64,000 nucleotides of DNA, taken from a bacterium (GTDB taxonomy: Bacteria; SAR324; NAC60-12). The stretch lies in contig CBDBHR010000028.1 in assembly GCA_965205865.1 (NCBI GenBank), positions 352,001 to 416,000 of the forward strand, read 5' to 3'. Shown here piece after piece: positions 6,767-28,166 of this stretch. How positions within the stretch are numbered: the first letter of the stretch is position 1; every line of letters begins with the position of its first letter. Made by a program: the position numbers and the translations under genes. Under the pieces are notes generated by a model. The model saw only the letters and a list, made by a program, of their open reading frames with translations. It had not been told where the DNA came from and did no database searches.

Positions 6767-7456
6767 GTGCGCCAGGAAAGCTGGCAAGAAATAGAGAGTG
6801 AAAGTCTCTTACTCGGTAAGGCAGTAACGACCCGCCGAGTCCCCGAGTCATGAGTGGTTATTCGCAAGGATAGGCGCTAAGCGTTGACAGGGGAGAACAT
6901 AGGCTCGGTATTGAGCTCCGAAATCATAGTTTCAGGTGCTGACCTTGTAGTCTGGTGGGGAAGGCAACATCAACCGAAGGCGTTAGCGTGAGTCCCGGTC
7001 GAGCCTGGCGGAGTCGAAGACCCGGCGCATGTGTGGAAGTTTCTTGATCGGAACCTGGGAGATCCTGAAGACGACTGTCAACATTCTATTGGTAGTCGGA
7101 TCGGGAAAATTAATAAATAACCCCGATATCTACGTCTTCAGGAAGTCGGACAAGTTCGTAGTAGCGATGAAGCGGCGAACAATGAGATCGTTTGTAGAGT
7201 AACAATGCAAAGGAAATCAACGGAGCCTGTGGAGCAAAGGGACTTGGCTGAGAGGAATTCTGCTTGCCCTCCTGTGTTCGGAACTCAGAGGCCGGTAAAA
7301 TCAGAGAGCGGTTCAAGCAGGGTGCGCCAAACGGCAACGTTTGAGCGTCTGACTCGAAGCAGGAGCCGGATGCGTTAGCAGCGCACGTCCGGATCTGTAC
7401 CGGAGGAATGACGAAAGGTGGCTGGAAACCACTATAAGTCAGTTCTTTACGGTGAC
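6767..7456 (+). mobile_element. ORF-less group II intron (IIB, bacterial class E-like)
   Basis: 5' GTGCG; domain V GAGCCGGATGCGTTAGCAGCGCACGTCCGGATCTG at about 7363 (AGC triad); 3' end GGTGAC; 690 nt with no RT ORF. Confidence 0.85.
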
Positions 7457-8245: not shown

Positions 8246-10354
8246 ATGTATCTTAAGAATTTTCTGGCCCCGGTCATGGGGCTGCCCGTGGCAAGCGTCG
8301 TGTCTGCTGCGAAAACCCGATTCGCCCCATGTCGGGTGAATCGTTCTCAAAACCCTCAATTTAGAGAGGTTCTTATGTATTGTATTATGAAGAAATTTGT
8401 CGCTCCCCTCATGGGGCTAAACGTGGCAGGCAACTTGTCTGCGGCGAAAACCCGATTCGCCCCATGGGTGAATCGTTCTTTCCATCCTCAATCAAAAGAG
8501 ATTACTATGGGTATTATAAAGAAACTTGTTGCCTCCATCGCGAGGCTGGACCCGGCAGGCTCTTTGTCTGCTGCAAAACTCATCTCGGTGCTGTTGGCCC
8601 TCCTCCTGGGTACGTTTGTTCTTGGAATGGGTCCGACTAACGCGGCTGAGAAGAAAATGCTCAAAGACCCTACCACTGGCCAGATGGTGACCGCGCCCGA
8701 GTATGGCGGGACAGTAAATCTCCCCCAGCAGGACTGGTGGGCTGACCAGTGGGACGTCTATTATGCGCACGTGCGGCATTCTGCTGGCGTTCTCGAGCAC
8801 CTGGGCATGAGGAACTGGGGCATAGATAGAGACGAATTCGACTTTCAGGGTGTCACACCTGTATCTGCCCTCACGGGGATGCTGGCGGAAAGCTGGTCGC
8901 AACCCAATCCACTGACTTATGTCTTTAAAATCCGCCAGGGCGTTTACTGGCATAAGAAGGCCCCTATGCACGGTCGAGAATTAACGGCCGATGACATCGT
9001 ATACAACTATCAGCGTCTGGCGGGTCTGGGCAAGTTCAGTGACGCCGAACCTTCCCCGATGCGTGAGTGGGCTACTCTGCCATTCGAATCAATAACGACC
9101 ACCGACAAATGGACGGTCGTTTTTAAGTTGACGGAGCCAAATCTCGCTATGCTGGAGACTCTCTTGGACGACTATATGGCTCAGATATACCCACCCGAGG
9201 TAATCGAGGAAACAAGGACTGCTGAAGCGCCGGTGGGCAAGCTTGTGGATGTGATGGACCTGGTCGGCACCGGGCCCTATGAGCTGAGCGACCTGGTCGT
9301 TGGCAGCTCGGTTCTCTATACCAAGAATCCTAATTACTGGGGTTATGACGAAAAATATCCGGAGAACCGCCTGCCCTATATCGACGAGATCAGGACACTG
9401 GTTATAAAAGACATGGCAACACTTCTGTCCGCACTGCGCACGGGCAAGGTTGATTACATCGGTTGGCCGGCCGCCTCCTCAACAATAAGTAACCTCGACG
9501 ATGTAGACAGCCTCCGCCGGACCCGCCCCGAAATCCAGCTGTGGCCGATAAAGTTTCGGAACTTGAACGCTTATGCCATGGACGTACGCCAGCCGCCCTT
9601 TGACGACATCCGGGTGCGCCATGCCATGCAGATGGCACTGGACCGTGAGAGCATAAACAATTCGCAATATAAGGGTCTGGGGGACAACACACCATACGGG
9701 ATATCTGCGGTCAAAGGGTATACCATCCCATTTGCGCAGTGGCCCGAAGAGCTCAAGAAGACCTATAACTATGACCCGGAAGGGGCAGAGGCGTTGCTCG
9801 ATGCGGCTGGATATCCGCGCGGTGCCGACGGCACCAGGTTCAAGACCAAGGTCCATATACCGGATTGGTTCGATGCCACCTACACAGAAATAGCCAGCTC
9901 CTACTGGGGTGAGATTGGCGTTGACGTAGAGATTCTCCTCCATGATGGTCTTACATATAACGCTATGGTGCGTGAACATACTTATGAAGGTCTCGCCATG
10001 GCCAATTCGGCTGCCCAATTTTCCCCTGGCATAACGGTGAATTGGGCTCATTCGACCGATAATTTTGGCGTGAACGCGCCCGGATGGCAGGACCTCAAGC
10101 TGGACGCCATGGTTGAAGCCGCTTTAGCCGCAGACAGCATTGAGGAGCAGAAGAGGCTGATCACAGAGGTGGACATGTACCAGATAGAGAATCGTGGCTG
10201 GGTATACGGTACGCTCGTTCCAATCTTCTTCGCGAACTGGCCATGGCTCAAAGGCTACAATGGTGAGCTTGGTTTGGGACAGCACGGCGATTTGGGCACC
10301 CTATTCTCCCGCCTCTGGCTTGATCCGGACCTGAAGAAAGAAATGGGGTATTAG
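8246..10354 (+). CDS. ABC transporter substrate-binding protein, family 5 (alternative starts at 8375 and 8507)
   Basis: LAESW, GTGPY and PPFDDIRVRHAMQMALDR motifs; hydrophobic signal peptide after the third Met. Confidence 0.9.
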   Translation: MYLKNFLAPVMGLPVASVVSAAKTRFAPCRVNRSQNPQFREVLMYCIMKKFVAPLMGLNVAGNLSAAKTRFAPWVNRSFHPQSKEITMGIIKKLVASIARLDPAGSLSAAKLISVLLALLLGTFVLGMGPTNAAEKKMLKDPTTGQMVTAPEYGGTVNLPQQDWWADQWDVYYAHVRHSAGVLEHLGMRNWGIDRDEFDFQGVTPVSALTGMLAESWSQPNPLTYVFKIRQGVYWHKKAPMHGRELTADDIVYNYQRLAGLGKFSDAEPSPMREWATLPFESITTTDKWTVVFKLTEPNLAMLETLLDDYMAQIYPPEVIEETRTAEAPVGKLVDVMDLVGTGPYELSDLVVGSSVLYTKNPNYWGYDEKYPENRLPYIDEIRTLVIKDMATLLSALRTGKVDYIGWPAASSTISNLDDVDSLRRTRPEIQLWPIKFRNLNAYAMDVRQPPFDDIRVRHAMQMALDRESINNSQYKGLGDNTPYGISAVKGYTIPFAQWPEELKKTYNYDPEGAEALLDAAGYPRGADGTRFKTKVHIPDWFDATYTEIASSYWGEIGVDVEILLHDGLTYNAMVREHTYEGLAMANSAAQFSPGITVNWAHSTDNFGVNAPGWQDLKLDAMVEAALAADSIEEQKRLITEVDMYQIENRGWVYGTLVPIFFANWPWLKGYNGELGLGQHGDLGTLFSRLWLDPDLKKEMGY

Positions 10355-10363
10355 GGGTTTCCC

Positions 10364-11329
10364 GTGAGAGTCTATCTCATCAGGCGGTTATTGCTGATCA
10401 TCCCCACCCTGTTCATCTCGAGCATCCTGGTCTTTCTCTCGGTGCGCTTCATCCCGGGCGATGCAATAAACTTAATCATGGATAGGATGGTCAATGTGGC
10501 GGGTGGCGGAGGCGCGATTGACCGTGAAGCTATTGAGCGCATGCTGGGACTGGACGTGCCCGTCTACGTGCAGTATGGACGCTGGCTGGGAGATATCCTC
10601 CGGCACGGCATCCTTGGCGAATCACTGTGGGGCGCCGGGTCGGTAGAAGAGGAGATATTTGATAGGTTGCCGGTCACCCTTCAGCTGGGTGTCATGGCAA
10701 TCGTCATCGGGCTCGTGATCGCGCTGCCCGTGGGCGTCTACTCGGCGATTCGTCAGGATACGGCTGCCGACTACCTGGGGCGCAGCATCGCCATCATCGG
10801 TCTGGCCACGCCGAACTTCTGGCTGGCCATTATGGTCATGCTCTACCCCTCACTCTGGTGGAACTGGTCGCCCTCGATGCTGCTGATTCCGTTCTCCGAA
10901 GACCCGCTGGGCAATCTGGGGATGTTCCTCATTCCCAGCCTGATTCTGGGAACGGCCACGGCTGCCAGCACCATGCGCCTGACGCGCACCATGATGCTGG
11001 AGGTGCTCCGGCAGGATTATATCCGCACCGCCTGGGCCAAGGGGCTCAAGGAGCGGGTCGTCGTTCTGGGACACGCCCTCAAGAATGCCTTCATCCCGGT
11101 CGTGACCCTGATCGGCATGGAGTTGCCTCTCCTGGTCGGGGGTTCCGTAATCATGGAGAACATCTTTAACCTGCCGGGGCTCGGTCGTCTCTTTCTGAAT
11201 GCCCTGCAAAACAGAGACTACCCGGTGGTCTCCGGAGTCAACCTGTTTTTCGCCGCCGGGGTGATGCTGTTCAATCTCCTCATCGACCTGATTTATCCCT
11301 ATTTGGACCCGAGGGTAAGGTATGAATAG
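10364..11329 (+). CDS. ABC permease (DppB/OppB-like)
   Basis: MLEVLRQDYIRTAWAKG loop; ends YLDPRVRYE. Confidence 0.95.
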   Translation: MRVYLIRRLLLIIPTLFISSILVFLSVRFIPGDAINLIMDRMVNVAGGGGAIDREAIERMLGLDVPVYVQYGRWLGDILRHGILGESLWGAGSVEEEIFDRLPVTLQLGVMAIVIGLVIALPVGVYSAIRQDTAADYLGRSIAIIGLATPNFWLAIMVMLYPSLWWNWSPSMLLIPFSEDPLGNLGMFLIPSLILGTATAASTMRLTRTMMLEVLRQDYIRTAWAKGLKERVVVLGHALKNAFIPVVTLIGMELPLLVGGSVIMENIFNLPGLGRLFLNALQNRDYPVVSGVNLFFAAGVMLFNLLIDLIYPYLDPRVRYE

Positions 11330-11414
11330 TCGTTATGCTTCTGGTAAATATAGGTTTGAGATTCGTATGTAAGAAGAAGTCCCTGCGGGACTGTATTATA
11401 GAACAATCCGCAAA

Positions 11415-12383
11415 ATGAATAACACCCAAGAAACACAATCAGCAGTCAGTGAGCCCAAGCGACGGGGCCGGTTTGCGGATTTCTTGATCAGACTGGCCAG
11501 GGAGAAGCCCCTGGGGACTGCCTGCGGGATGATCGTCTTGCTCTTGATTGTGGTGGCGATTTTTGCCGATGTTTTGGCTCCTTATCCCCATCGTGAAATA
11601 CACATGGCCGACCGGCTGACTGGCCCATCAGCCCGGTATCTCCTGGGGACCGACCACGTGGGGCGAGACTTCTTGAGCCGTATCCTCTATGGGGCTCGTC
11701 ATTCCTTAACGGTCGGTCTGGCCGCCACCACGCTCAATGTGGTGATCGCACTCCTCATCGGCGGCACTTCCGGATTCTTTGGGGGGAAAGTGGACCTGGC
11801 GGTGCAGCGCTTTGTCGATGCCTGGATTACTTTCCCGGGGCTGCTGCTCTTGTTAACCCTCATGTCCCTCGCGGGACGGGGTTTGATCCAGATCATCCTG
11901 GTCCTGGGGATATCCGGAGGCATCGGCGCCTCGAGAGTCATCAGAGGCGCCGTGATCGGTATTAAAGAGAATGATTACTTTCTGGCAGCCAGGGCCGTGG
12001 GCACCTCGACAAGCCAAATCCTGATCCGCCATGTCCTGCCCAATATTATACCGCCCCTCCTCATCATCTTTTCCATCAACATCGGCGGGGTCATCATTGC
12101 CGAGGCATCGCTGAGCTTTCTCGGATTCGGTCTGCCCCTCGACATTCCCAGCTGGGGAGGTCTGCTCAGCCGGGAAGGGCGCAGATACATGGAGCAGGCG
12201 CCCTGGCTGGCTCTCTGGCCGGGGCTGTGCCTGACGATTACCGTCTACAGCCTCAACATGTTCGGCGATGCTGTGAGAGACCTGCTCGATCCCCGGCTGA
12301 AGGGTGGGCAGGGAAGTTACAGCGCCGCAGGGAAACGCAAAAGAGGTCTCTTTGCCCGGCTGATCAACCCTTTCAAATGGTGA
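11415..12383 (+). CDS. ABC permease (DppC/OppC-like)
   Basis: LLGTDHVGRD, HVLPN and FGDAVRDLLDPR motifs. Confidence 0.95.
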   Translation: MNNTQETQSAVSEPKRRGRFADFLIRLAREKPLGTACGMIVLLLIVVAIFADVLAPYPHREIHMADRLTGPSARYLLGTDHVGRDFLSRILYGARHSLTVGLAATTLNVVIALLIGGTSGFFGGKVDLAVQRFVDAWITFPGLLLLLTLMSLAGRGLIQIILVLGISGGIGASRVIRGAVIGIKENDYFLAARAVGTSTSQILIRHVLPNIIPPLLIIFSINIGGVIIAEASLSFLGFGLPLDIPSWGGLLSREGRRYMEQAPWLALWPGLCLTITVYSLNMFGDAVRDLLDPRLKGGQGSYSAAGKRKRGLFARLINPFKW

Positions 12384-12892: not shown

Positions 12893-14551
12893 AGTTAATC
12901 AGTGTTATTTATTTGAAAAGGATTATATTCTGGGTGATCTTTGAGAAACTGCATCCGATAGGAGATCGGCATGTTATTCCAGTAATTTTCAAAAGCCGGA
13001 GCCCAAAACAAGTTGCATACCGAATTGAGCATCACGACATGGGATTTTGCTCCTTGTATGGATTTGTATCGCACTTTATCCTCAGAAAAATGATGATCTT
13101 TTGTTCCAAAAGTACCGGTTTCAGTATCCCAGTGCAGTAAAACGCGGTTGATAATGTTCTCAACGTTCCAGTTTGCAGAGGGATAACTAGAGAGAAAGTA
13201 CTGAGTTTCGAGGTGTTGTGTCTCCAGATTGGTCTTGTCGATTACGAAAGCTTCTCTCACCCCGGGATAGCCAGAAAATTTGAGTCCTACTATTCTACAA
13301 AGACGACGAGAATGAATCGCCCCTCCTGCCAACCGTGCCTGTTCAAAATAGTGACCATCGGGATGTTTTTCTTTGGCAAAGGAGGTCCAATCCAGCAGAC
13401 GATCAAAGATCTCTCCAGCATTTTGTTTGATTCTAAAAATAAAAAAAGCCAACGACGGTCAGCCATTTGCAGAATTCACGAACACAAAATCCCGCATCCC
13501 CACTAACAAGAATATCACCCTGTTGAGGAAGGGGCGCTAAGGCATCGAGCACCGATAAAGCCGCTCCCCACTCTCCCTTACGATCGAGCTGAGTTTCTCT
13601 GGCTCCGATTATATGGCGATGCCGATTGCCATCGGAATCTAGCTGGGTCTGTGTTACATGAACAAAGCGTTCTTGGACTTCCATATTGTAGGAGGCTTTG
13701 ACGACCTTGCCATCCAATAACAAATCTATTCTCTCTTGCTTTTGAAGCGATTCGGTTGTGCCTGAAGCATTCGACTCCTTCGAGACAGAAGGTTCTGAAG
13801 GTTTGGATAAATTTTGCTTTGAGGCAAGGGGCTTGCTCTTGGATACCCCGGTTCGTTTTGCTGCTGCCGCACTCATTCCTTGAGCTTTTTCTTGGGCTTC
13901 TCGCTCTTGCTTGATCTGTTGCATACGAGTTTGATCCTTCTTTTGTTGCTCCTGACGAAATTCATCCAAAATGACTTGGGGATCTCGCAGTTTTCGTTGA
14001 ACTACCAGTTCAGGAACATAGCCCAAACGTTTCCACAGGGGAGCCAAAACCACGTTGGCCTCATCCCAATCGATGCGTCTGAGTAAAGCGTACACCGCTG
14101 GACGGGTCGGGAGAACTCCTAATTGACGAGTCACCTCCGGATCACGTTGACTTTGTTTTTTGGGAAAGAGAATACCGATATGCCGGGTCCCTGAAAGAAG
14201 ACCTGAAATAATACGATGAAGAATCAAAGACAACGGATAGATACTCAAGGACTCCTGGCGAGGATCTTTTACACCTTTGAGACAATTCCAGTAAATCTCT
14301 GATAGATCAGAAAATAACTCTGGCGCTAACGGAGAGGGAAGAATTTATTCAAAACTTCCATCTTCAAGGCTGGCTTTGTGGACCATCCGTAACTCACTGC
14401 GTTCACGGCGATGCAAGGAAACTGCTCCGCTTCCACCTCGACCTGGACGAATAAACATAGGCTGTTAAATGGACAATTGGTTAATCATGCTTTACAAAAA
14501 ACAAATATGCTGGCAAATGAGAAAGATGTCAAGCAAATGTAGTGATTAACT
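12893..14551 (-). mobile_element. ISAs1-like insertion sequence, degenerate
   Basis: Transposase motifs DPRQ, DGKVVKAS, GDAGFC and HWDTE..KDHHFSED, split into 13433-14248 and 12895-13452 at a T7 run. In-frame TAA near the N-terminus; ~25-bp imperfect IR starting AGTTAATCA at both ends. Confidence 0.75.
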
Positions 14552-14554
14552 CGG

Positions 14555-14656
14555 ATGAGCAATATCGTGGGAGGACGTGAAAACGATTGATATTCCCCGG
14601 GAATCTTTTTTAATGATATTGAACTAAACGGGTTTTTCAGAGACCTGAATAGTTAC
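14555..14656. repeat. Dispersed repeat, copy C (CTGAATAGTTAC end)
   Basis: Similar to 8106-8223; lies where the distal arm of the ribokinase-cassette attC would be expected. Confidence 0.8.
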
Positions 14657-14702
14657 ATCGAAAGTACTAAAAGGATCGGATAAAACGTTCAACTTATTTT
14701 GT

Positions 14703-15415
14703 GTGTGCCCGGCATGGGCATGAACTTATGGGGTGTGAGTTCCCTGTACATTATCCGAAAAGTATACTAGTCAGCTTATGATTACAACTTTAAAAAGTAC
14801 TAGCCGAGGGCAAGTGCGGGGAGGTGACGAGCCGTGCGGAGGAAGCCTGAGCGCAAACCTACGAGTCGACGGACAGAAACAGCATATAAGGCTGAACTTC
14901 GGGGCGAGCAAGCACAACATTGCGATGTCCACTCGGATTAAGGAGGATGGTAAATGCTGCGATTGTGTAGGGAAAGTTCATGCTCTTACCCGGGGAGATC
15001 TGCTTTACATGCGGAATACCGGGGGAACCAAGAGACTAGAAGACCGTGGAAAACGGAACACTCTCCTCTTGGTTTCAATGGAATTCAGCGCCTTTGGTGG
15101 TAACATCGAAGGTGATGATGCAGAAGTCAGCCGAGGGTGAGAAAATCTCATTTATGAGATAGAAGGCCTGAGCGCAGTGTGGACAGGGAGGTATTTGTGA
15201 GTTCTGTTTCTCAATTATCCTCGAACCGAGGAGTTGGAAATGGGCACGTCGCAGAAGAACCGTCTGTCAATCTAAGATTCATTACCCCGCTTCGGTGCGG
15301 TAGACACTTGGTATCGTTTAGATACCTCTACCTGATAGTAGGCGAGGCGCCACTTACGGACCCGTATGAGTGGTGCTGTGGGAGGAAGGGGAGAAAACCC
15401 CCTTCCTATCCCGAT
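14703..15415 (+). mobile_element. ORF-less group IIC intron inserted in an attC site
   Basis: 5' GTGTGCCCGGCATGGG; short domain V GAGGCGCCACTTACGGACCCGTATGAGTGGTG (CGC triad); 3' CCCGAT; flanks rejoin as TTGT/TGGATTG. Confidence 0.9.
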
Positions 15416-16293
15416 TGGATTGTGTTCAGTTCTTTTCGGTACGGGATGGAATCCGAAGCACCTGCCCTGGTTACACAGATTGAAGCAGCATGGCATCCAA
15501 GTGACAAAGCCTTGCTCGGATCATTGTTGTGCATGAGTTCAGCAAGAAAGTAGCCGATAAACGTGTCGCCGGCTGCGGTAGTATCAACGGCCTCCACCGG
15601 GAAGGCGGGTTGCCGATGATGGGTATCAGCATCGAAATACAAAACCCTTTCCTTCCCCAGGGTCAGAACAGTGACAGCGTTCGGAAATTGCCTGCACATT
15701 TCAATACGGACATCTTCTACCGTAGTCTTGCCCGTCATCCCCTCCGCTTCGGTCTCATTGAGAATAAAAATATCAACGGATTGCAGCGGATAATCGAGAA
15801 CAGCCGAGGTCATTGGAGCAGGATTAAATACAATTCGCAATCCATGCTGTTTGCCCATTAGAATTGCCTCCGCCACCGAACTGGTCTCGTTCTGAAGGAG
15901 GAGATAGTCATCTCGTGAGCAGGATGATAGCGCACGTGCGATGGTGGGTGGACTCACGGTGTGATTCGCTCCGCTATAGAGTAAGATAGCGTTCTCGCCG
16001 GTGGGAACCACCTGGATAATTGCATGCCCCATCGCGGTTTCTGCCACTTCCACATGTGTGATATCAACGCCCTCTTTTGCAAGGCGATCGAGTAGCCATT
16101 CGGCATCCTTGCCTACCATTCCTGTGTGCCGTGTTACCGCCCCTGCTCGAGCCAATGCGATTGATTGGTTGAATCCCTTGCCACCAGCAAAGATTTCATA
16201 CCGGGAGCTGGCAAGGGTCTCTCCCGGACGAACGAAGTGCTCGACCGCATATACATGATCAACGTTAATTGATCCGACATTCACTATCTGCAT
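15406..16293 (-). CDS. rbsK: Ribokinase (PfkB family), integron cassette
   Basis: GSINVD, GGKGFNQ, NPAP, NETE and DTTAAGDTF motifs. Confidence 0.85.
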   Translation of the reverse strand: MQIVNVGSINVDHVYAVEHFVRPGETLASSRYEIFAGGKGFNQSIALARAGAVTRHTGMVGKDAEWLLDRLAKEGVDITHVEVAETAMGHAIIQVVPTGENAILLYSGANHTVSPPTIARALSSCSRDDYLLLQNETSSVAEAILMGKQHGLRIVFNPAPMTSAVLDYPLQSVDIFILNETEAEGMTGKTTVEDVRIEMCRQFPNAVTVLTLGKERVLYFDADTHHRQPAFPVEAVDTTAAGDTFIGYFLAELMHNNDPSKALSLGCHAASICVTRAGASDSIPYRKELNTIQSG

Positions 16294-16305
16294 CTTTTTC
16301 TTTCA

Positions 16306-16429
16306 ATCCAACGTTCAGCGTGAGAGCGGCAGACCAGAGATGAAGTTTAGCAAAAAAAGGAGGTCTCGATTTACCAAAGAAGTTGGAAAAAAGCACAGGT
16401 CTGCCGTTACTTCAACGCACTTGTTAGGC
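16306..16429 (-). other. attC site (124 bp)
   Basis: On the minus strand R'' GCCTAAC ... R' GTTGGAT, with an inner CGGCAGACC / GGTCTGCCG palindrome. Confidence 0.85.
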
Positions 16430-16701
16430 AGTCAAACGCTTGACATTTAGTATATTACGATGTTGCTCCGCTGCCATAAGTCATATTGCATTTGCTGGTT
16501 TAACCAGCTTTCGGAGGTTGAATCAAATGCGATTGACAATCGTACTGCCATTTCCGGACTAATTTTAGTTTGCCCATTAATGATAGTAGATAAAGTCTTA
16601 TGGCTGACACCTAATGCCTTAGCTGCTTCAGAAATACTCAACCCTAATGGTTCAAGGCATAATTCTTTAATAATTTCACCAGGATGAAGGGGATTGTGCA
16701 T
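16424..16701 (-). pseudogene. higA: HigA-family antitoxin with 3' frameshift; toxin absent
   Basis: [10 protein letters not shown]...[10 protein letters not shown]...ESWLNQQ. Adding one base restores [17 protein letters not shown], which ends in the TAA of the attC R''. Confidence 0.8.
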
Positions 16702-16753
16702 GGTGGTTTTGAAAATAGGCTTTCACAGAGAGACCGGACTCTTCAACCTTTTG

Positions 16754-17061
16754 AAAGAGTTTAAGAATGGCTGCTGGTCTTTCTTTTTCTTTTGTGATAG
16801 TTCTCAACGAAATCGCCTTTGGCTGAAGGTTTTATTTCAATTTTGCTAATATTTTAGCCGAAAGTCATGTAAAACCTCATTTCCTCCCCAGAGGATTTTT
16901 AGAAACGGTCAACGGGGAATTGAAAAGTGCCAAAAATGTTGACTGCTTTCTCTCAATATGAAAAAAATATTTTCGTTGATCATCAGAAGACATTCATGAA
17001 TGAATGAGTCGCCCTATTTAAAAATATCTTGACAACCATTTGTAGATCGAATATATATCTT
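16754..17061 (+). promoter_or_regulatory. Repeated non-coding promoter-bearing block, copy 1
   Basis: Closely matches 24973-25232; ends in TTGACA (17029-17034) followed by an AT-rich -10-like region. Confidence 0.65.
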
Positions 17062-17159
17062 AAATTCCAAAAACGGAAGAGCAATACGGACCCAAGAATC
17101 CGAGAACTCTAAGCCCAAGAGCGGCTAAACTCTTGGTTCATTTAAAAAGGAGAACCTTT

Positions 17160-18212
17160 ATGTCAGCAATACAGAAGGGCGGCACCGTCGCAGTCACGGG
17201 TGCCGCCGGATTTATCGGCAGCTGGGTAGTGCGGCGGCTGCTGGACAAGGGCTACCGCGTGCGTGCGTGCGTGCGCAACGCCGATGATGCAGCTCGCACC
17301 ACGTTCCTGCGGCAGATGTCCGGCTACGCGTCCGGGCGGCTTACCATCCACAGCGCCGACCTGGACCTGGCCGGCTGTTTCGACGAGGCCTTCGCCGGCT
17401 GTCATGGCGTGTGTCACGTGTCACATGTCAGCAAGTACAACGACATGGACTACGTGCAGATGGTGTGCGATCACACCATCGCCAGTATCGACAAGTCCGA
17501 GAGCGTCGGCCGGGTGATCGTCACCTCCAGCCTGGCCACCGTGCTGACCGAGGCGGATCCACAGGAGTGGGCGCGCCGGCCGGTGCTCTACGAAGACCGC
17601 TACCCCAACGAGCAGCATCCAGACTGGGGTCCGAAGCACCACGGCTACGCGATGAGTAAGCTCATCGCCGAGCGATCGTTCGCCCAGGCCGCGGTGCGCA
17701 GCGGCAGGTGGGAATCGATTGCCTGCCTGCCCTCCGACAACGTCGGGCCGATCCAGTCCGCGCATCAGAAGGACATGGGGCCGTGGCAGCACCGCATCGA
17801 GATGATGCTGCTGGGTGAGTACCCGCAGACCGAAGTGTATCGACCATGGATGCCGGTCGACGTGCGAGACGACGCCGACTGTCACATCGGCCTGCTCGAG
17901 AGCGTGCAGGTGCGCAGCGGCGAGCGCTACCTGGCCTGGGCGGCCGAAATGCGCAAGGTGGAAGCGATCGACCGTCGAATAGGCCAGCTGCTGCCCGAGA
18001 TCGGGCGGGCCGAAGCTTCGGTCGCCGATAGTCAATCTGCCGAGATCAAGGCGCAGGAGGTTGAGCTGCGGGCAATCTGGGCCGGCTGCGACCCGCGCAA
18101 CGACCGCATCCGCGCCGTTACCGGCGTTGAGTTCCGTCCGTTCGACGAGTCGCTGCGCGACTGCGTCGAGTCACTGCTTGCCGTCGCCAAGGTGCAGCCG
18201 CACGTGGCCTGA
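17160..18212 (+). CDS. NAD-dependent epimerase/dehydratase (extended SDR, DFR-like)
   Basis: TGAAGFIG and YAMSK (YxxxK) motifs; AAGGAG RBS; much higher GC than its flanks. Confidence 0.9.
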   Translation: MSAIQKGGTVAVTGAAGFIGSWVVRRLLDKGYRVRACVRNADDAARTTFLRQMSGYASGRLTIHSADLDLAGCFDEAFAGCHGVCHVSHVSKYNDMDYVQMVCDHTIASIDKSESVGRVIVTSSLATVLTEADPQEWARRPVLYEDRYPNEQHPDWGPKHHGYAMSKLIAERSFAQAAVRSGRWESIACLPSDNVGPIQSAHQKDMGPWQHRIEMMLLGEYPQTEVYRPWMPVDVRDDADCHIGLLESVQVRSGERYLAWAAEMRKVEAIDRRIGQLLPEIGRAEASVADSQSAEIKAQEVELRAIWAGCDPRNDRIRAVTGVEFRPFDESLRDCVESLLAVAKVQPHVA

Positions 18213-18529
18213 CTCCTGACGTATTGCACACGGCGAGTGCCAGTGCGACCCAGCTGCGCCACGATGCGTTGCGGTTATATATCGCCAATGATAAATCGGG
18301 AGTGACCCGCTGGAGTGTTGGTGTCTGTCCTCAGCAAGATTCGCTATTGTGATTTTGCTAATAGGGCGTTTCCTGGCGTGTTCCCTCTGGCCCGTGTCAA
18401 GGATTTCCTTTTTCAGCCTTTGTTCGTTTTTGCTTTTCTGTCATGGTACCTTGCTATCTTAAGCTTCAGGAGCTTCGTTTTTAGCCAACTGTTGAAAAAA
18501 GGTGTATAGATTTGTATTTGAGTCAGAGT

Positions 18530-18645
18530 GCTAAACGTTACGCTCAGTTACCGCCATCTCTAGAAAAAATAAGAAACCAGACAAAATCTTGAACGAGACT
18601 TTTAGAGGCAAAGCGGCGTGATGGCGGTCAACTGAAGCATCTTGT
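18530..18645 (-). other. attC site interrupted by a group IIC intron (R'' completed at 19158-19162)
   Basis: Reconstituted minus strand: AGTTAAC-AAGATG-CTTCAGTTGACCGCCATC...GATGGCGGTAACTGAG-CGTAAC-GTTTAGC, with two extrahelical bases. Confidence 0.85.
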
Positions 18646-19157
18646 GTGTGCCCGGCATGGGCATGAACTTATGGGGTGTGAGTCCCCTGTACATTATCCG
18701 AAAAGTATACTAGTCAGCTTATGATTACAACTTTAAAAAGTACTAGCCGAGGGCAAGTGCGGGGAGGTGACGAGCCGTGCGGAGGAAGCCTAAGCGCAAA
18801 CCTACGAGTCGACGGACAGAAACAGCATATAAGGCTGAACTTCGGGGCGAGCAAGCACAACATTGCGATGTCCACTCGGATTAAGGAGGATGGTAAATGC
18901 TGCGATTGTGTAGGGAAAGTTCATGCTCTTACCCGGGGAGATCTGATCGTGATGCGGTCGGAGATAGTGCTCTGTACCTGATGAAGCCGACCGGTGGAGA
19001 TGATTAAAATAGGTGCGTTGTGGGACGAATAAACGTACAGGTTTGTGGTTGCAAATCTGGTCCGGCTACGGCCCGACACTCTTTGGGAATCGCCCCGTAC
19101 GGACCCGTATGTGGGGTTGATGGGAGGGAGGGGAGAAAAACCCCTTCCGATCCCGAT
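18646..19157 (+). mobile_element. ORF-less group IIC intron inserted in an attC site (512 nt)
   Basis: 5' GTGTGCCCGGCATGGG; domain V GAATCGCCCCGTACGGACCCGTATGTGGGG; 3' CCCGAT; flanks rejoin as TTGT/TAACTGC. Confidence 0.9.
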
Positions 19158-19609
19158 TAACTGCTTTTTTGATCAAATGCTAGTTTTCCTAATTCTTGAT
19201 ACAACTCAGCTAATTTATTCTCAGCTTGGTCATAAATTTCCTTTAGATTATCATGTTTTCTTAAAACAGGATGGCTTCCTAAAAATTGATAAATATAATC
19301 AACTGCTACTGAAGCACGATCCATTGCCTCAAAATAATGCCCATCATTAATTTCTGATTCTTCTTCATCTGGAACTAATATGATTGGTTCTTCTTTCTTT
19401 TCTTTTAGAATAGGTTTTCTAAAGGCATTCAGTTGATATCTAATATCTTCACGCAGTTCTTCTGGAGTAGCTCCAAATGGTGAGATAGGTGATTCTGTCC
19501 ATCCTTCAATATTACCTTGTTCATCATAGTAAACCTCATGGATCTGATATGCTTTTTCCTCAGATTCCAATATTTCTTTTTTGATGATTCTATAATTCCA
19601 GTGTGACAT
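19157..19609 (-). CDS. Hypothetical protein, integron cassette
   Basis: 150-aa AT-rich ORF MSHWNYRIIKK. The cassette starts G^TTAACTGC and ends GCAGTTAAC, with the stop codon inside R''. Confidence 0.75.
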   Translation of the reverse strand: MSHWNYRIIKKEILESEEKAYQIHEVYYDEQGNIEGWTESPISPFGATPEELREDIRYQLNAFRKPILKEKKEEPIILVPDEEESEINDGHYFEAMDRASVAVDYIYQFLGSHPVLRKHDNLKEIYDQAENKLAELYQELGKLAFDQKSS

Positions 19610-19625
19610 TTTAGTTTTTCTTGGC

Positions 19626-19722
19626 AGTTAACGAATAGCATTTTATCAGTAATGGCCTGATCGCACAGCCGTTTATCCTTCTCTGGATGTCGGCGGCCAT
19701 TTCGGATAAAATGTGGTTGAAC
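19626..19722 (-). other. attC site (97 bp)
   Basis: Minus strand GTTCAAC...CATTTTATCCGAAATGGCC / GGCCATTACTGATAAAATG...GTTAACT. Confidence 0.7.
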
Positions 19723-19852
19723 TGAGCCGCGTTGACGGAGTTCAGCGGTGTTTTTTGCTATGGGTATTGTATAAGGGAGGCAGAGTAGGAAGGCAAGGAA
19801 AAAGGAATGGTCGTTGGCATGCCATCTCCTCGAAAAAGGGTTGTTCTAGCTA

Positions 19853-21686
19853 GACCCTAGCCGAAAAGGGTTTCGAAAATAGTAAATATAACCGATTGGA
19901 TTCTATTTGATTCTCTATTTGATTCAATATGACGAGAAAACGATTTATTTTTGTTTTTTATTCGCCCACAGCACAGTTTTTATAGGGAAAAAATCTTTTT
20001 TGGACATACTTTCCTCGCCCCTGCTCATATTTCACACTCCCCCATTGAATATTCAGGCCGCTTGTTTGAGTTGTCTTTTTTTCAACTCAATCATTTTGCA
20101 AAAATTATAGGTTAATGCTTTTTCCAGCAACTCTGCCCGAACGTTTTCAATCCCTCTGCGCATAACTTGTCCGAAATGGAAACGATGCTTAAGATGAAAC
20201 ATCAACGACTCTGCAGCAGATCTTCCATTTCGTGATTCCAAATAGATTTCACTTTCCCATTCTTCAATCGGGGTCATCTTTTTTCCCTTTGCCCCACTAA
20301 TACTAAAAACCTTAACGCCTTTGCCCATCCACTTTTCTCTGATCGCCTGATTGGCATATCCATCATCAAGGCTCACTTCAGAGGGAATGGTGATGGTGCA
20401 TCGCAAATGTTCAACAAGGGCAGGGTCGAGTTGCCCTGAATCAGCAGCATTGCCCTCCGGAGTAATTAACACGGAAATAAAACCATTTCCGCTCCTTCCT
20501 AATTGAGGCTTATATCCGATAAGCGCTTCTCGATCTCCCTTTTGAATATAAGCCGAACTCTGATCGGAAAGACTCAATACTTTCTCAGTAGAAGGAACCT
20601 TCTTTTCTTCAAAAACTCTTTGATGACAGTAGATGATTACCCGTTGCAAATTAGAAATATCTTCATTCATCATTTCAATGAGGCGAATCAAACGCGTTTT
20701 CCGAGAAGGGGGGAGAAGAGCTTTTTGGGCACGGATATCCACCTTTGCCATTTCTTTTAAAAATTTCCCATGAGCGCTTTGAGCTTTCTTCAATAGGGTT
20801 TTGTAATGTTTTTTTCGCTTCGTTTTACTGTCCTTTTTACCTGTCTCAAAAGCAATCATCTTAGAGAGCTTATTCATCTCCTTGATGAGGAAATCAAAAT
20901 TTCTTTCACTGATCTCAGCGATTCCAAATGTATCAAGGGAACGCCCTCGATGGTAGCTTCGCTCCACGAGACGAGTCAATATCGACGAATCAGTAGGCCA
21001 AGCTGTATTTCCTTTTACAGAGGTGCTATCCAGTTTTAAAATATCAAAATCGTCCAACTCTTCATTGAGAACCATTCGAATTTGAGCATCGAAAATAAAC
21101 TGTCTGGTCTCGTTGCTGACAGCATTGACATTATCAAGGATTGTACTCGCTCCCGGCATTTTCAATCCACGGTTGAGCAGAAGCAGATGCAGTGTGATTG
21201 ACTCTGAAAGAAATATTTGGGCCGTTTGGGATTTGATACTTCCTAAGTATCCCCGAATCATCATAAAAAGGTAGACTAAAAAAGCCGACATCCGAGGACA
21301 CCCTATTTCCAGCCTCAGTTCTTCCGGCTTCAATTCCTCATCTTCTACGGGAAGATGAGGAAGCCATGGATTCCGGGCTTCCTGCCATCGTTTATCCTCT
21401 AAACGCTCTTTCTTTTTATTTCTTGCGTATTTCTCCAAATCCTGTTCAATTTTGTCCAATATCTCCGGCTCTCGCTCAGACAATTGATCAAGTTCTGATA
21501 AGAAATTTTCAAATTCTGTATCAGGAGCGCTTAAAAAAAGATGTTTTTCTGCTCGAATGAATGGTTTCATTTTGGGTGCCATAATTCTTAATATTGAAGT
21601 TATTCACAGTTATTTCAATGAATTATGGCACTTTTTAACCTCAAGTTAAAGATATAATTCTAAAAAATACCTTTTCGGCTAGGATC
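19853..21686 (-). mobile_element. Intact DDE insertion sequence (IS5-like/ISNCY), transposase 20053-21582
   Basis: 509-aa transposase with DST..WPTDS, DDGY and RSAAES motifs; IR GACCCTAGCCGAAAAGG / GATCCTAGCCGAAAAGG; flanking direct repeat TAGCTA. Confidence 0.9.
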
Positions 21687-21842: not shown

Positions 21843-22905
21843 TTAGGAAGAATCGTTCCTTTCCGGCCTGGGCCCTGTCGCAGCAGGCTCTCCGAGGGCA
21901 TGAAAGGCCGGGATTGGCCGACTCCGTCGCATCGTTCCCGTCTCACAGACCGGACAGCGGTTCCACTCCTCCCCAAGCAAGGTGCTGATCAATTCAAGCG
22001 CCGTTTTCTTCGGCGGTTTGTGATAATCGCCCTGCACAGCCAAGGCCTGGCGAATGAGATTCAATTTCTCGGCTTTCTGGTTATGGGCCTGAAAGCCATA
22101 AAAGCGGATGCGCGGGGCGGCCTTCCGATGAAGCCATCGGGTAAGACAGCGGAAGGCCGCCCCTTTGCAAAAAACGTCGGATGAACTCTTCGGCGCTTAA
22201 GCGCATCGTCTCACGGGTGCCGCTTTTGCGATTCTGATAGCTGAAGACGACGTGGCCGTCTTCAATGGCGAGAATGCGATGATTGGCAATGGCGACACGA
22301 TGGGTATAACGCGCCAGATAATCGAGCACATAATCCGGCTGATCAAAGCTCTCTTTAGAAAAAACAACCCAGGCCTTGCCATAGAGCGTATCCAGCAATG
22401 ACTGAAAGGCAAGCGGATGCGCCAGATCAGCCGTCTTTCCCGGGAACTGAAGCGCTCCCTGTTGATACGCCTTTTTCAAGCCATCTAAATACTTGCCGCG
22501 AAACTTCGCAGAGAGGGCCACGACGTTAAAGAGGTAATCCCCTTTCACCCCGATCCATTGAGAACCATCAAATCAGAGGGCTCCGGCAGGAATAACCACA
22601 TGCAAATGAAAGTGAGCCAGCAGTTTCTGGTTCCAGGTATGCAGCACGGCCAGAAACCCCAATTGCCCCCCGAGATGATGCTTGGGATCAGCGGCAAATG
22701 CCTGGAGGGTTTCCGCGGTGCTCTTGAAGAGTAAATTCAACAACACCTTTTGATTAGACAAAATCAAACCATTCAACTCGTGGGGTAGCGTAAAGACATT
22801 GTGAAAATAATTCACCGGCAGCAATTCAGCTCGGCGATCCTCCAACCATCGGGCTTTAGCCAAACTCTGGCACTTGGACGGGGGCGCCTAGCCAATGGCG
22901 GTTAC
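21843..22905 (-). pseudogene. IS91-family (Y2) transposase pseudogene
   Basis: YFHNVFTLP, LHTW..HFHLHVV, YLARYTHR and EEFIRRFL motifs; internal stop, short insertions and 5' truncation. Confidence 0.9.
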
Positions 22906-24972: not shown

Positions 24973-25232
24973 AAAGAGGGTTAAAGAATGGCTGCTGGTC
25001 TTTCGTTTTCTTTTGTGATCGTTTTCAAGAAATCGCCTTTTGCTTAAGGTTTTATTTTAATGTCGCGATTGTTAAAAACGGTCAACGGGGAATGGAAAAG
25101 TGTCAAAAATGATGACTTCTTTCTCTCGATATGAAAAATTATTTTCGTTGATCATCAGAAGACACTCATGAATGAATGAGTCGCCATATTTAAAAAAATC
25201 TTGATACATTTGCAGAGCGATTATACTATTTC
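24973..25232 (+). promoter_or_regulatory. Repeated non-coding promoter-bearing block, copy 2
   Basis: Matches 16754-17061; contains ACTCAT-N6-ATGAGT and TTGATA...TATACT. Confidence 0.65.
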
Positions 25233-25749: not shown

Positions 25750-25837
25750 CAGTTCACAGTTCACAGTTCACAGTTCACAGTTCACAGTTCACAGTTCACA
25801 GTTCACAGTTCACAGTTCACAGTTCACAGTTCACAGT
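25750..25837. repeat. Perfect heptamer tandem repeat (CAGTTCA)12 + CAGT
   Basis: Counted directly; followed by degenerate units. Confidence 0.95.
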
Positions 25838-25883
25838 AATAAGTCCCAGTCACAATTCACAAATCCCAAGTTCTACCCTCTTA

Positions 25884-26003
25884 TGTCATCTCGACGGGGC
25901 CGTCGGTACGCCCGGTCCGCGCACGGTGGTCCATATACGGCGTACCGGAAGCAACGCGGTAGCGGCGCCCAGTCCGAGAGGGAGAGATCCTTAAGATCCC
26001 TCG
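25884..26003. repeat. REP-like element with nested insertions
   Basis: TGTCATCTCGAC...GGAGAGATCC..AGATCCCTCG. Confidence 0.5.
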
Positions 26004-26149
26004 TTCCCAGTTCCAAATTCCAAGTTCCTGAATCGGCAATGGGGAATTTGGAAAATCATCGGCGCCTGAGTGCGTCGGTATATGGTTCATTGCCCAATCC
26101 TGGAGCCAATGAATCGGTTTTTTTATCACTCCAAAATGAAGGAGACCCA

Positions 26150-28144
26150 ATGTGTAGAGAAATCGTCGAGAACGTGCTTTCGGGAACGAAAGCAGGTTTT
26201 AAAGCAACCCGCAATCTTGTTTTTAATCAAAAAGCAGAAAGGAGCACCATGAACCGTCAAAAAAGTAGAGGAATCGTCGAGAACGTGCTTTCGGGAATGA
26301 AGGCAGGTTTGAAAGCAATCCTTAATTATGAACATCCATTCGAAAGGAAAAAGATGTTTAATCAAAAAAGCAGCTCAACCTTCAGTGCAACCCTGCTTGC
26401 CCTCATCCTGGGGGTAGCAGTCTTCATGGCTGGCCAGGTCTGGGCAGCCAAACAGATGGTGATCGATCCCGGCACCGGTAAAATGATAACTGCGCCTCAG
26501 TACGGCGGGACCCTCACCTATGCGTTGGCCTCTTTCGTCAACCACACGGACAGCTTTTTATCGCACGGGGCGGGATTGAATGTCTCTCCCGTGCTAGACA
26601 GGCTCGGCATCAGTGACTGGGCGATAGATCGGGAGAAAGTAGCGAACTACGCAGCGCCATACGTGCCTTTAGAAGCCTTAAGGGGGAACCTGGCGGAAAG
26701 CTGGTCGCAGCCCGACGACAAAACCCTGATCTTCAAGATCCGCCAGGGCGTTCACTTGCATGACAAGGCCCCGGTGAATGGCAGAGCGTTAGTGGCGGAT
26801 GATCTCGCCTATAACTATCAACGTTTATTTGGGATAGGAAGGTTCGCCGGTAAAGAGAAAGCCCCCCAGACTTTTGGGATCTTGGCGTTGCCCATCGAAT
26901 CGGTCGAGGCCACCGACAAAACGACGCTGGTTGTCAAGCTGAAGCAGCCCAGCTTTGGTGCGCTGGCGCAGCTCTTTGACGATTGCCATGGTTATGTTTA
27001 CGCCCCCGAGATCATCGAGGAACATGGCAACGCTGAGGATTGGCGGACCGTGGTGGGCACCGGGCCCTTTACGATAACTGACGTTGTCGAGGGCACTTCT
27101 GTCACCTGGGAAAAGAACCCGCACTACTGGAAAAACGACGAAAAATTCCCGCAGAACCGCTTGCCCTATCTGGACAAGTTAGTGGCTCTGATTATGACAG
27201 ATCCGGCAACAAGGCTGGCGGCCATGCGCTCCGGTAAGATTGATTACACAGGTCATCTTGGAAACAGCCAAGTACCGACTATCGATACGGCAGTGGCTCT
27301 TAAGAAGAGCAATCCCCAAATCGTGCAGTGGCCCTTTGCCTATCGGTCGTATAATTCTTTTGCCATCAGCGTCAATAAACCGCCCTTCGATGACATCCGG
27401 GTGCGCCAGGCGCTGCAGATGGCCCTGGATCTGGAGACCATCCACGAATCCTACCATCAAGGTTATGGAGAGTGGCTCCCTCAGGGGATGGTGGGCTCTG
27501 GGATGAGAGGGTATAACAACCCGTTTGAAACGTGGCCTGCCGAGGTCCAGAAGACCTATAGCTATGACCCGGAAGGGGCCGAGAAGCTCCTGGATGAGGC
27601 CGGGTACCCGCGCGGCGCCGATGGCATTCGATTCAAGACCAATTTGTACACGAGTCGAGCCTCGTCCGATACAGGCTATCGAGAATTAGCCGCCGGCTAC
27701 TGGTCTAAGATTGGGGTTGAGGTTGAGGTTAATGCCGTCGACGACCCGCAAATGGTCAATCTCGGGAAGGGACAAACTATCGAAGGGTTTATGGATTTCA
27801 CGAACATCGGGGCCGACTACGGGAATCTTGGCCAGCTCACTGGTATTCAGACGACTGGTGGATGGAACCCCGGCGCCATCAGCGACCCGGTTTATGACGC
27901 TAAGGTTGATGCCGTCAGGGCGGCGACCAGCCTCGAGGAGCAGAAGAGGCTGGTGAAAGAGGCCGATATGTACGCGATTCAGCAAAAGTGGTTTATCTGG
28001 GGTTCTAGAACGCCACAGTTTAACCTGAACCAGCCGTGGGTCGTCGGTTATAGCGGGGAAACCCAGCTGGGGAGTTGTGGATGGGGCCGTGTCTTCACCC
28101 GGTTGTGGATTGACCAGGACCTGAAGAAAGAAATGGGGCATTAG
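26150..28144 (+). CDS. ABC transporter substrate-binding protein, family 5 (alternative starts at 26249 and 26354)
   Basis: Paralog of 8246-10354. Three in-frame ATGs each have an RBS; the signal peptide follows the last one. Confidence 0.9.
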   Translation: MCREIVENVLSGTKAGFKATRNLVFNQKAERSTMNRQKSRGIVENVLSGMKAGLKAILNYEHPFERKKMFNQKSSSTFSATLLALILGVAVFMAGQVWAAKQMVIDPGTGKMITAPQYGGTLTYALASFVNHTDSFLSHGAGLNVSPVLDRLGISDWAIDREKVANYAAPYVPLEALRGNLAESWSQPDDKTLIFKIRQGVHLHDKAPVNGRALVADDLAYNYQRLFGIGRFAGKEKAPQTFGILALPIESVEATDKTTLVVKLKQPSFGALAQLFDDCHGYVYAPEIIEEHGNAEDWRTVVGTGPFTITDVVEGTSVTWEKNPHYWKNDEKFPQNRLPYLDKLVALIMTDPATRLAAMRSGKIDYTGHLGNSQVPTIDTAVALKKSNPQIVQWPFAYRSYNSFAISVNKPPFDDIRVRQALQMALDLETIHESYHQGYGEWLPQGMVGSGMRGYNNPFETWPAEVQKTYSYDPEGAEKLLDEAGYPRGADGIRFKTNLYTSRASSDTGYRELAAGYWSKIGVEVEVNAVDDPQMVNLGKGQTIEGFMDFTNIGADYGNLGQLTGIQTTGGWNPGAISDPVYDAKVDAVRAATSLEEQKRLVKEADMYAIQQKWFIWGSRTPQFNLNQPWVVGYSGETQLGSCGWGRVFTRLWIDQDLKKEMGH

Positions 28145-28166
28145 GATTTCTGATGAGGTCTGTTCC

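Follow-up and report, generated by a model that had tools for sequence, protein, structure and literature searches.

We analysed a stretch of 64,000 nucleotides (nt) from a SAR324 bacterium (GTDB lineage Bacteria; SAR324; NAC60-12), positions 352,001 to 416,000 of contig CBDBHR010000028.1 in GenBank assembly GCA_965205865.1, hereafter the window. Two group II introns that lack an open reading frame (ORF) for a reverse transcriptase (RT) lie there within attC sites of an integron-type cassette array. Class C introns of the attC type (IIC-attC) are described in PMC7923331 as inserting at TTGT/T, the intron-binding sites IBS1 and IBS3, in the R'' box of the attC bottom strand once it has folded; the attC hairpin there stands in for IBS2. 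Positions without a prefix are window positions; all others are given as contig:position, the window being C28:352001-416000 of this genome (G000).

Two ORF-less class C introns split attC sites

The cassette segment of the window holds the following features (intron families A and B are introduced below):

14657-14702, + strand: half-site of the PfkB cassette attC, 46 nt, surviving 3' half with a TCAAC motif; GT of its R'' box at 14701-14702, the remainder TGGAT at 15416-15420
14703-15415, + strand: intron 1, read as an ORF-deleted family A intron; domain I (D1) 14818-14984, domains II/III (D2/D3) 15089-15168, ORF-deletion joint 15272/15273, domains V-VI (D5-D6) 15345-15415
15406-16293, - strand: cassette ORF for a PfkB-family sugar kinase (PF00294, 168 bits), 295 amino acids (aa), ending 10 nt inside intron 1
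16306-16429, + strand (bottom strand of the site): unoccupied attC, 124 nt, ATCCAAC...CACTTGT/TAGGC, with an 11-bp inner stem and an intact TTGT/T target
16447-16701, - strand: HTH_3 ORF, between two attC sites
17133-18212, + strand: NAD-epimerase-family ORF, between two attC sites and on the opposite strand to the cassettes
18530-18645, + strand (bottom strand of the site): attC of the ORF150 cassette, hairpin arms 18545-18558 and 18620-34; R'' completed by TAACT at 19158-19162
18646-19157, + strand: intron 2, read as a decayed family B intron; D1 18761-18927, deletion point after ~18969, D5-D6 19088-19157
19157-19609, - strand: ORF150 cassette ORF, no Pfam family
19626-19737, + strand (bottom strand of the site): next attC-like site, AGTTAAC...GTTGACG, ends paired; an insertion sequence (IS) interrupts the cassette on its far side

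Intron 1 (713 nt) and intron 2 (512 nt) are both class C (IIC) group II introns. In Rfam searches of the window, RF02001 (group II D1-D4) scored above its gathering threshold at 14818-14984 (111.3 bits) and 18761-18927 (110.9 bits). At the gathering threshold, RF01998 also matched intron 1 at 15089-15168 with 43.7 bits, and no RF01998 match was found by Rfam in intron 2. A search with relaxed thresholds placed RF00029 (domains V/VI) at 15345-15415 in intron 1 (37.0 bits, E 1.6e-5, slightly below the 40-bit cut-off) and at 19088-19157 in intron 2 (25.4 bits, E 0.008). Both introns start with GTGTGCCCGG and end with CCCGAT, so that the GUGUG...GAU ends, in agreement with GUGYG and AY, are the same in the two window introns and in all A and B copies. 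The 5' exon ends in TTGT in both cases; the 3' exon begins with TGGAT at intron 1 and with TAACT at intron 2. An RT frame is absent from both introns. Intron 1 has a minimum free energy z-score of -6.55, with D5 and D6 hairpins at its 3' end. A scan with consensus promoters found none inside either intron, outward or inward, the regional count being 5 against 5.4 expected from shuffles.

In an integrated cassette, the six bases that follow the G of the upstream crossover form part of the cassette's own R' box and are hence complementary to its own R'' box. The sequence GT/TGGAT, rebuilt across intron 1, is complementary at 7/7 positions to ATCCAAC at 16306-16312, a 7-mer 13 nt upstream of the PfkB start; GT/TAACT, rebuilt across intron 2, is complementary at 7/7 positions to AGTTAAC at 19626-19632, 17 nt upstream of the ORF150 start. 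From each of these boundary 7-mers an imperfect hairpin begins, 112-124 nt long and with GTT at its end (16306-16429, -16.4 kcal/mol; 19626-19737, -20.9 kcal/mol). When the site of intron 2 is computed without the intron, its fold is a stem of 14 bp with a single bulge (-17.1 kcal/mol). The layout TCAAC-N(4-9)-TTGT/T is common to three sites. Altogether, we read by hand and folded four attC or attC-like sites in the window: 14657-14702 (plus 5 nt), 16306-16429, 18530-18645 (plus 5 nt) and 19626-19737. Both introns are inserted in the attC bottom strand at TTGT/T, with R'' split between GT and T, and both lie on the + strand, antisense to the PfkB, HTH_3 and ORF150 ORFs. In computed translations, the PfkB frame has 318 aa without intron 1 and 295 aa with it, with an altered C-terminal tail. 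The TAA stop of ORF150 falls in R'', spans the intron/exon joint and is unchanged with or without intron 2.

An initial annotation of this DNA, made from the sequence alone, had described two introns of 713 and 512 nt with IIC-type ends, opposite in orientation to the cassettes. Rfam, the ends and the exon junctions agree with it to the base, and the last base of each RF00029 match (15415 and 19157) is the intron end that it gave. It had also proposed that removal of the introns restores the R'' boxes TTGT/TGGAT and TTGT/TAACT, which matches the full complementarity of each to the 5' boundary of its own cassette; and its assignment of the introns to the class C type that targets TTGT/T on the attC bottom strand, antisense to cassettes, was borne out at both sites. 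We also considered building an attC model from homogeneous repeats and rejected this approach, as the arrays beside intI in four relatives had no self-similarity apart from one 198-nt repeat.

The genome carries an autonomous and an ORF-less intron family

We compared both introns with the whole genome by BLAST. This census returned two families of complete elements:

C26:165810-167759: A_C26, family A (autonomous), full-length
C25:23745-25697: A_C25, family A, full-length
C15:7060-9012: A_C15, family A, full-length (the three A copies measure 1950-1953 nt)
C23:180923-181621: B_C23, family B (ORF-less), 699 nt
C24:45224-45922: B_C24, family B, 699 nt
C10:71543-72241: B_C10, family B, 699 nt

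Every A copy has an open frame of 460-461 codons, and A_C25 and A_C15 are identical at 1953/1953 positions while occupying different sites. From its GTG start, the A protein (P0001) has 419 aa with an intact YADD motif; its only domains are RVT_1 (125.5 bits) and GIIM (44.3 bits), and it has no endonuclease (En) domain. The three B copies are identical to one another at 695-697/699 positions, and their 1.5-kb flanks are not homologous to one another. By Rfam, the ribozyme parts of the 699-nt form (B699) are complete (RF02001, 110.9 bits; RF01998, 53.7 bits; RF00029, 39.0 bits). All complete copies, 8/8 with the two window introns, sit at TTGT/T; these 8-site counts omit an interrupted copy, B_C3, and fragments at C28:266559-266659, C26:240179-240321 and C29:727953-728188. 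Read directly, the domain I loop GAUUACAACUU offers ACAA to pair with TTGT. A search for covariation between the exon-binding site EBS1 and IBS1 over 47 relatives was set aside: the loop aligns poorly and the exact 4-mer occurs in 15/47, so we used only ACAA/TTGT in A, B and their closest relatives. Genome-wide, at least 50 RF00029 matches were among those listed, as against 4 GIIM and 11 RVT_1 matches, which points to a genome crowded with ORF-less introns. We also note an intron within an intron at C29:727953-728269, where a B-like 3' part (95% identical to B 459-696) directly follows the D5/D6 end of a different intron.

The window introns correspond to one family each. In BLAST alignments with A_C26, positions 1-576 and 571-713 of intron 1 flank the A ORF, at 98.3% and 96.5% identity, and the joint reads ...GTCAATC/TAAGATTC... 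(the lower global MAFFT identity to the full-length copies, 626-628/713, was discarded as an artefact of the large gap). Intron 1 is a family A intron from which the ORF was precisely deleted, a one-off form. Intron 2 aligns with B_C23 at 507/512 identical positions and 187 gap columns, a deletion of ~185 nt having taken out D2/D3. It also carries a G>U change in D5, which makes it the only one of the 20 sequences compared below whose C-G pairing at the CGC triad is disrupted, and a U>G change adjoining the bulged (branch) A of domain VI. Intron 2 derives from the 699-nt form through deletion and mutation and probably cannot splice. The 713-nt form and the 512-nt form each occur once in the genome, and, taken alone, both window copies are ordinary decay of mobile DNA.

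A and B are identical at 298/300 positions over nt 1-300; beyond nt 300, only 203/381 aligned positions agree. Since the two families share their first 300 nt and then diverge, B did not arise from A by mere loss of the ORF. It is a chimera of A's domain I, with the same target-recognition loops, and domains II-VI of another lineage.

Relatives share the target motif and the B-type ribozyme

The best matches of the A protein in a tblastn search of plasmids were ltrA genes on enterobacterial plasmids, at 47-49% identity. One of these loci (CP083755.1) sits in a class 1 integron, with a blaIMP-26 cassette on one side and qacEdelta1 on the other, and is encoded on the opposite strand; its intron is flanked as ...ATTGT/...CCCGAT/T. 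Of 80 genomic loci encoding relatives (41-86% identity), 46 had a 5' junction that could be located; adding the query gives 47 rows, in which the 5' exon ends in GT in 43 and in TTGT in 27. We then built a tree of 67 RTs by a quick maximum-likelihood search, with the other intron RT family of this genome as root. The query falls in a 56-row clade together with the integron-borne intron and all 38 TTGT/xxGT rows, with a support of 84 by the Shimodaira-Hasegawa-like approximate likelihood ratio test (SH-aLRT), in a tree that holds no named terminator-type IIC references. Nine rows lie outside this clade; the four of them with known 5' exons, ending in ACCT, GGAG, GGTG and TTCT, are basal. This gives moderate support for placing the RT in the attC-type lineage.

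The B-type 3' module is present in another genome of the family as well, from a different genus (G008), in a 639-nt element with a GUGUG-type domain I and in a ~706-nt element with a GUACG-type one. The 639-nt element aligns to B through D1, D3, D4 and D5, and its domain V differs from that of B699 by paired changes (UACG/CGUA to UGCG/CGCA). In 20 intron 3' ends, drawn from this genome, from G008 and from other phyla, 13/23 predicted D5/D6 pairs have compensatory changes, and the CGC triad is invariant (20/20). The G008 loci examined comprise 12 intron 3' ends. In nine, all of the non-tandem ones, the 3' exon begins with T (GT/TGGGC, GT/TGGAC, GT/TAGGG); in the other three, the 5' end of another intron follows within 0-1 nt. 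The ORF-less lineage thus either predates these two genera or has moved between them, and its catalytic core can still fold. In a further genome (G016), a full-length relative lies ~9 kb from intI, antisense to the expected cassette direction, and ends ...CCCGAT/TAAGAG.

The tandem arrangements in G008 place attC-type introns 0-1 nt after an ORF-less intron (L026:102/103, L131:475/476 and L034:165-167). At L026, the downstream intron has an exon-binding loop other than ACAA; it includes AUC, a possible pairing partner for the upstream intron's GAU end.

Intron-free sites

We mapped Logan contigs of four public runs from three studies to window positions 14300-19700; two of the runs are metatranscriptomic (X15 and X16) and two are of unknown kind (X1 and X2). 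At site 2, contigs in 4/4 runs join 18644/5 to 19157/8 and skip exactly the 512 nt, with a 1-nt ambiguity and up to 255 nt on the shorter side of the joint. RNA splicing was considered for this joint in X15 and X16 and rejected: X1 and X2 show the same joint, and the contigs are strandless. Other populations thus carry an allele of site 2 without the intron, and intron 2 is polymorphic for presence and absence. At site 1, X1 and X2 contigs with the PfkB cassette begin at 15389, 27 nt inside intron 1, so the site is occupied there. One X2 contig (15034-15304) passes the ORF-deletion joint without an insertion. The full-length form is represented by an X1 contig, in which 1237 additional letters separate 15272 from 15273. 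We read intron 1 as fixed in at least two other populations.

The family boundary is set by an empty site within the assembly. At C30:856936/856937, the joined exons of A_C15, positions C30:856647-856936 run straight into 856937-857858, with 99.7% identity to both A_C15 flanks. The presence of occupied A_C15 (C15:7060-9012) and of its empty site on C30 in one assembly could reflect a recent duplication or two strains binned together.

State of the array and neighbouring DNA

No integron integrase was found in the whole genome, which is 92% complete, or in the window: the best TIGR02249 match has 43 bits against a cut-off of 265 bits. Six of 41 genomes of the family or order, this genome being counted among the 41, have TIGR02249 matches above the cut-off. 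The sister species (G001), which supplies the one further genome of this genus, has an integrase fragment of 122 bits that contains a stop codon. The array of the window is best described as a decaying cluster of attC sites without an integrase (CALIN). It is cut by an IS from ~19846; the copies of this IS begin at flank position 687-691, i.e. window ~19844-19848. A dispersed repeat of 101 nt (14556-14656), whose dozens of copies (85-98% identity) are spread over many contigs, adjoins the PfkB half-site.

The IS itself, at 19846-21650, encodes a DDE_Tnp_1 transposase (20053-21582, - strand) and has ~40 genome copies at 96-100% identity. It is followed at 22081-22863 by an IS91-family (Y2_Tnp) transposase in two frames, probably a pseudogene. 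An AT-rich element of ~300 nt is found at 16750-17060 and 24975-25215; it has ~25 genome copies (83-93% identity), and both window copies lie upstream of a + strand gene. The region of the NAD-epimerase ORF has a GC content of 0.67 (17500-17999) against 0.37-0.51 around it and looks foreign to the array. On either side of the variable region are paralogous operons of an SBP_bac_5 gene and two permease genes (8246-12383 and 25883-30078); a 750-nt permease segment has well over 100 genome matches at ~70-86% identity, an unusually large paralogue family. A perfect tandem repeat of the 7-mer CAGTTCA (12.6 copies, 25750-25837) lies shortly upstream of the second operon.

One more group II intron, the third in the window and different from the others in RNA type, lies at 6801-7456, with an RF02005 match at 6801-7023 (164 bits) and a D5/D6 match at 7361-7456 (C28:359361-359456). 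No RT frame was found between these two matches. The genome has ~25 similar 96-nt D5/D6 matches of this type, and five RT-bearing copies (473-477 aa) adjoin such matches.

Interpretation and alternatives

We propose that the two window introns are IIC-attC introns without an RT ORF, inserted in the R'' boxes of a decaying CALIN, and that they are by-products of a system made up of a helper family (A) and a ribozyme-only family (B); we give this reading a probability of about 75%. Family A is the autonomous member, with its 1.95-kb length and En-less RT/maturase. The intron RNA would be bound by an A-type protein, supplied in trans in the case of B, and would reverse-splice into the single-stranded DNA of an attC hairpin at TTGT/T; the inserted RNA would then be copied into DNA. 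The anatomy, the copy census, the target motif, the empty sites, the D5/D6 covariation and the RT clade are direct observations; we infer the trans-mobilisation of B by the A protein, the use of single-stranded DNA and any effect on cassette excision.

Several observations weigh against this proposal. RF00029 scores below its gathering cut-off (40 bits) in all A and B copies. The attC assignments come from hand-read features and DNA folds, not from an attC covariance model, and the 101-nt repeat occupies the place of the 5' half of the PfkB cassette attC. When we looked for a boundary complement within ~900 nt past the antisense ORF, it was present at 4/8 insertion sites (both window sites, B_C23 and B_C24) and was not found at A_C26, A_C25, A_C15 or B_C10. 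Because no full-length A copy shows the boundary 7-mer, family A also uses non-cassette hairpins. Domain IV of B, the usual high-affinity protein site, has no similarity to that of A, and because the domain IV sequences are unrelated, A's protein might not serve B. We found no B-type RT copy or other class C RT in the 92%-complete assembly, the remaining GIIM and RVT_1 matches belonging to different intron families. The support of 84 for the RT clade is moderate, for a tree without named terminator-type IIC references, and the joined contigs from the RNA runs are not readable as splicing.

Alternatively, the flanks may not be attC sites at all: the insertion sites could be generic hairpins or terminators of the kind used by class C introns, their cassette-like look being coincidental. 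Half of the sites, including those of all three full-length A copies, have no boundary complement; the A_C15 site folds weakly, the genome has no integrase and the attC calls were read by hand. Yet each window site has an exact 7-mer complement, which lies just upstream of one lone antisense ORF and from which an imperfect hairpin of 112-124 nt follows, and we roughly estimate the chance of four such boundary matches among 8 sites at ~6e-4 (900/16384 per site). In addition, R'' contains the stop of ORF150, and three sites share the TCAAC-to-TTGT/T layout. We consider coincidence very unlikely. Pure decay, in which the ORF-less forms would be dead relics of in-place deletion that were never mobile and the B copies would stem from segment duplication, seems to us just as improbable. 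It fits a genome rich in repeats and duplicated units, and both window forms are unique and intron 2 is visibly damaged; but it does not readily account for three 699-nt copies with the same internal architecture in non-homologous 1.5-kb flanks, each at TTGT/T, for B-type elements with compensatory D5 changes and at least nine further attC-type insertion sites in another genus, or for a polymorphic site 2 with exact boundaries. The initial annotation had proposed a non-autonomous attC-targeting family: such a family exists, as the three 699-nt B copies at unrelated sites and the B-type elements of the other genus, but neither window form belongs to the mobile form. Where it had raised the case of unique forms unable to splice, we found that each window form is unique and that intron 2 probably cannot splice, while B is multi-copy. 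The trans-acting IIC RT that it suggested searching for has a possible source in the three full-length A copies with open RVT_1 and GIIM frames.

Its further proposal was that the introns, by splitting R'', block excision and so lock cassettes into the chromosome. On this reading, the folded bottom-strand attC would fail to form the R box bound by the integrase. Five of the seven R'' bases are indeed moved 512 or 713 nt away from the hairpin, integrases occur in the family, and related introns are found in R'' boxes in G008 and beside intI in G016. However, this genome has no integrase and the sister species only the interrupted fragment, the array is already cut by the IS and the dispersed repeat, the intron-free allele of site 2 persists, and larger units could presumably still excise via intact neighbouring attC sites; our literature search found no excision test. 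We hold locking to be unlikely, and the consequence of splitting R'' for integrase action is moot in a genome without an integrase. A different role would be that of recombination junctions at which attC modules become linked to unrelated DNA, i.e. intermediates of the Léon-Roy route, with the shared 300-nt domain I (298/300 between A and B) serving as homology for exchange. The Léon-Roy model of cassette formation, as summarised in PMC3053210, predicts such joints, exchange between intron copies being its middle step. Upstream of A_C26, a 117-nt module from AAC to TTGT is 95.6% identical to that of B_C24 and abuts the intron in both; the homology begins at AAC, the would-be integrase crossover position, and ends at the intron (C26:151286-169259; C24:45923-46036). 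On its 3' side, A_C26 has a flank with 97-98% identity to a pair of nearby paralogous units without intron or attC, and this homology breaks exactly at the last base of the intron. An exchange between two copies of the intron would be expected to leave such a pattern. Against this, it is a single case outside the window and no clear antisense gene lies beside the joint; the paralogous units have no hairpin before TTGT/T (-8.2 kcal/mol per 100 nt), so that an intron landing there is not obvious, and gene conversion between paralogous units that halted at the insertion could give part of the pattern. We regard a role in recombination as rather doubtful.

Our preferred reading, of a helper family and a ribozyme-only family with the window copies as by-products, could be extended further. 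A and B may form a long-lived attC-targeting pair across the family, comparable to long and short interspersed nuclear elements (LINE/SINE), in which B swaps domain I, intron copies act as portable homology and A_C26/B_C24 is a natural Léon-Roy intermediate. We put this forward tentatively, as a picture with the odds against it. If true, the ORF-less partner gains target specificity from whichever autonomous intron is present. We know of no case in which an intermediate of the Léon-Roy route to new cassettes has been seen in the wild.

Discussion

To our knowledge, IIC-attC introns have so far been described only in RT-encoding form. Our full-text literature search found no description of ORF-less IIC-attC forms, though the primary IIC-attC papers may already mention them. 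ORF-less bacterial group II introns as such are called rare in PMC4424553. Described here is a ribozyme-only lineage aimed at attC sites beside an autonomous partner, in this genome and in at least one other genus of the family.

The introns agree with IIC-attC introns of the S.ma.I2 type, as these are described in PMC7923331 and PMC3001079, in being inserted antisense to cassettes, at the TTGT/T of R'' on the bottom strand of attC. The ltrA intron of CP083755.1 (locus L024), which represents this type here, likewise has an En-less RT (47% identical), a 3' end in ...CCCGAT and a D5 of the same shape. They differ from the IIC-attC introns of mobile integrons in that the window copies and B have no ORF and start with GUGUG instead of GUACG; the host is a chromosomal array without an integrase, and the window introns contain no outward promoter-like site. 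The defective IIC-attC intron called UHB.F1, which Sonbol and Siam (2021, PMC7923331) report in a cassette array of a soda lake, is also antisense in an environmental array or CALIN, but in that account it is 5'-truncated with a frameshifted ORF, not a complete ORF-less ribozyme, and the account describes no multi-copy ORF-less lineage. Terminator-targeting class C introns of the B.h.I1 type, according to PMC4424553, share the small ribozyme, the En-less RT, insertion after a stem-loop and a very short IBS1. They insert after intrinsic terminators in the sense direction, whereas the introns described here insert at TTGT/T in attC R'', antisense, although three A copies are at non-cassette hairpins.

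A parallel for the relation between A and B is found in Thermosynechococcus elongatus, where Mohr et al. (2010, PMC2882425) report that ORF-less TeI3 introns are mobilised by TeI4 proteins. In that account, as here, multi-copy ORF-less introns exist beside related RT-encoding introns, the flanks pair with the exon-binding site, and the ORF-less copies are as frequent as the autonomous ones or more so. The present introns are of class IIC and recognise a hairpin plus 4-5 nt in integron attC sites, not the IIB/CL homing sites of the Thermosynechococcus introns; moreover, B combines A's domain I with foreign domains II-VI and is not a plain ORF deletion.

The main interest thus lies in the A/B system of this genome and its relatives, and not in the two worn copies of the window. 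It would be the second natural system, after Thermosynechococcus, in which a helper RT drives parasitic introns, and in the smallest intron class. It supplies concrete constructs with which the effect of an intron in R'' on cassette recombination could be probed, and the one locus at which the intron ends coincide with an exchange of flanks bears on how cassettes acquire their attC sites.

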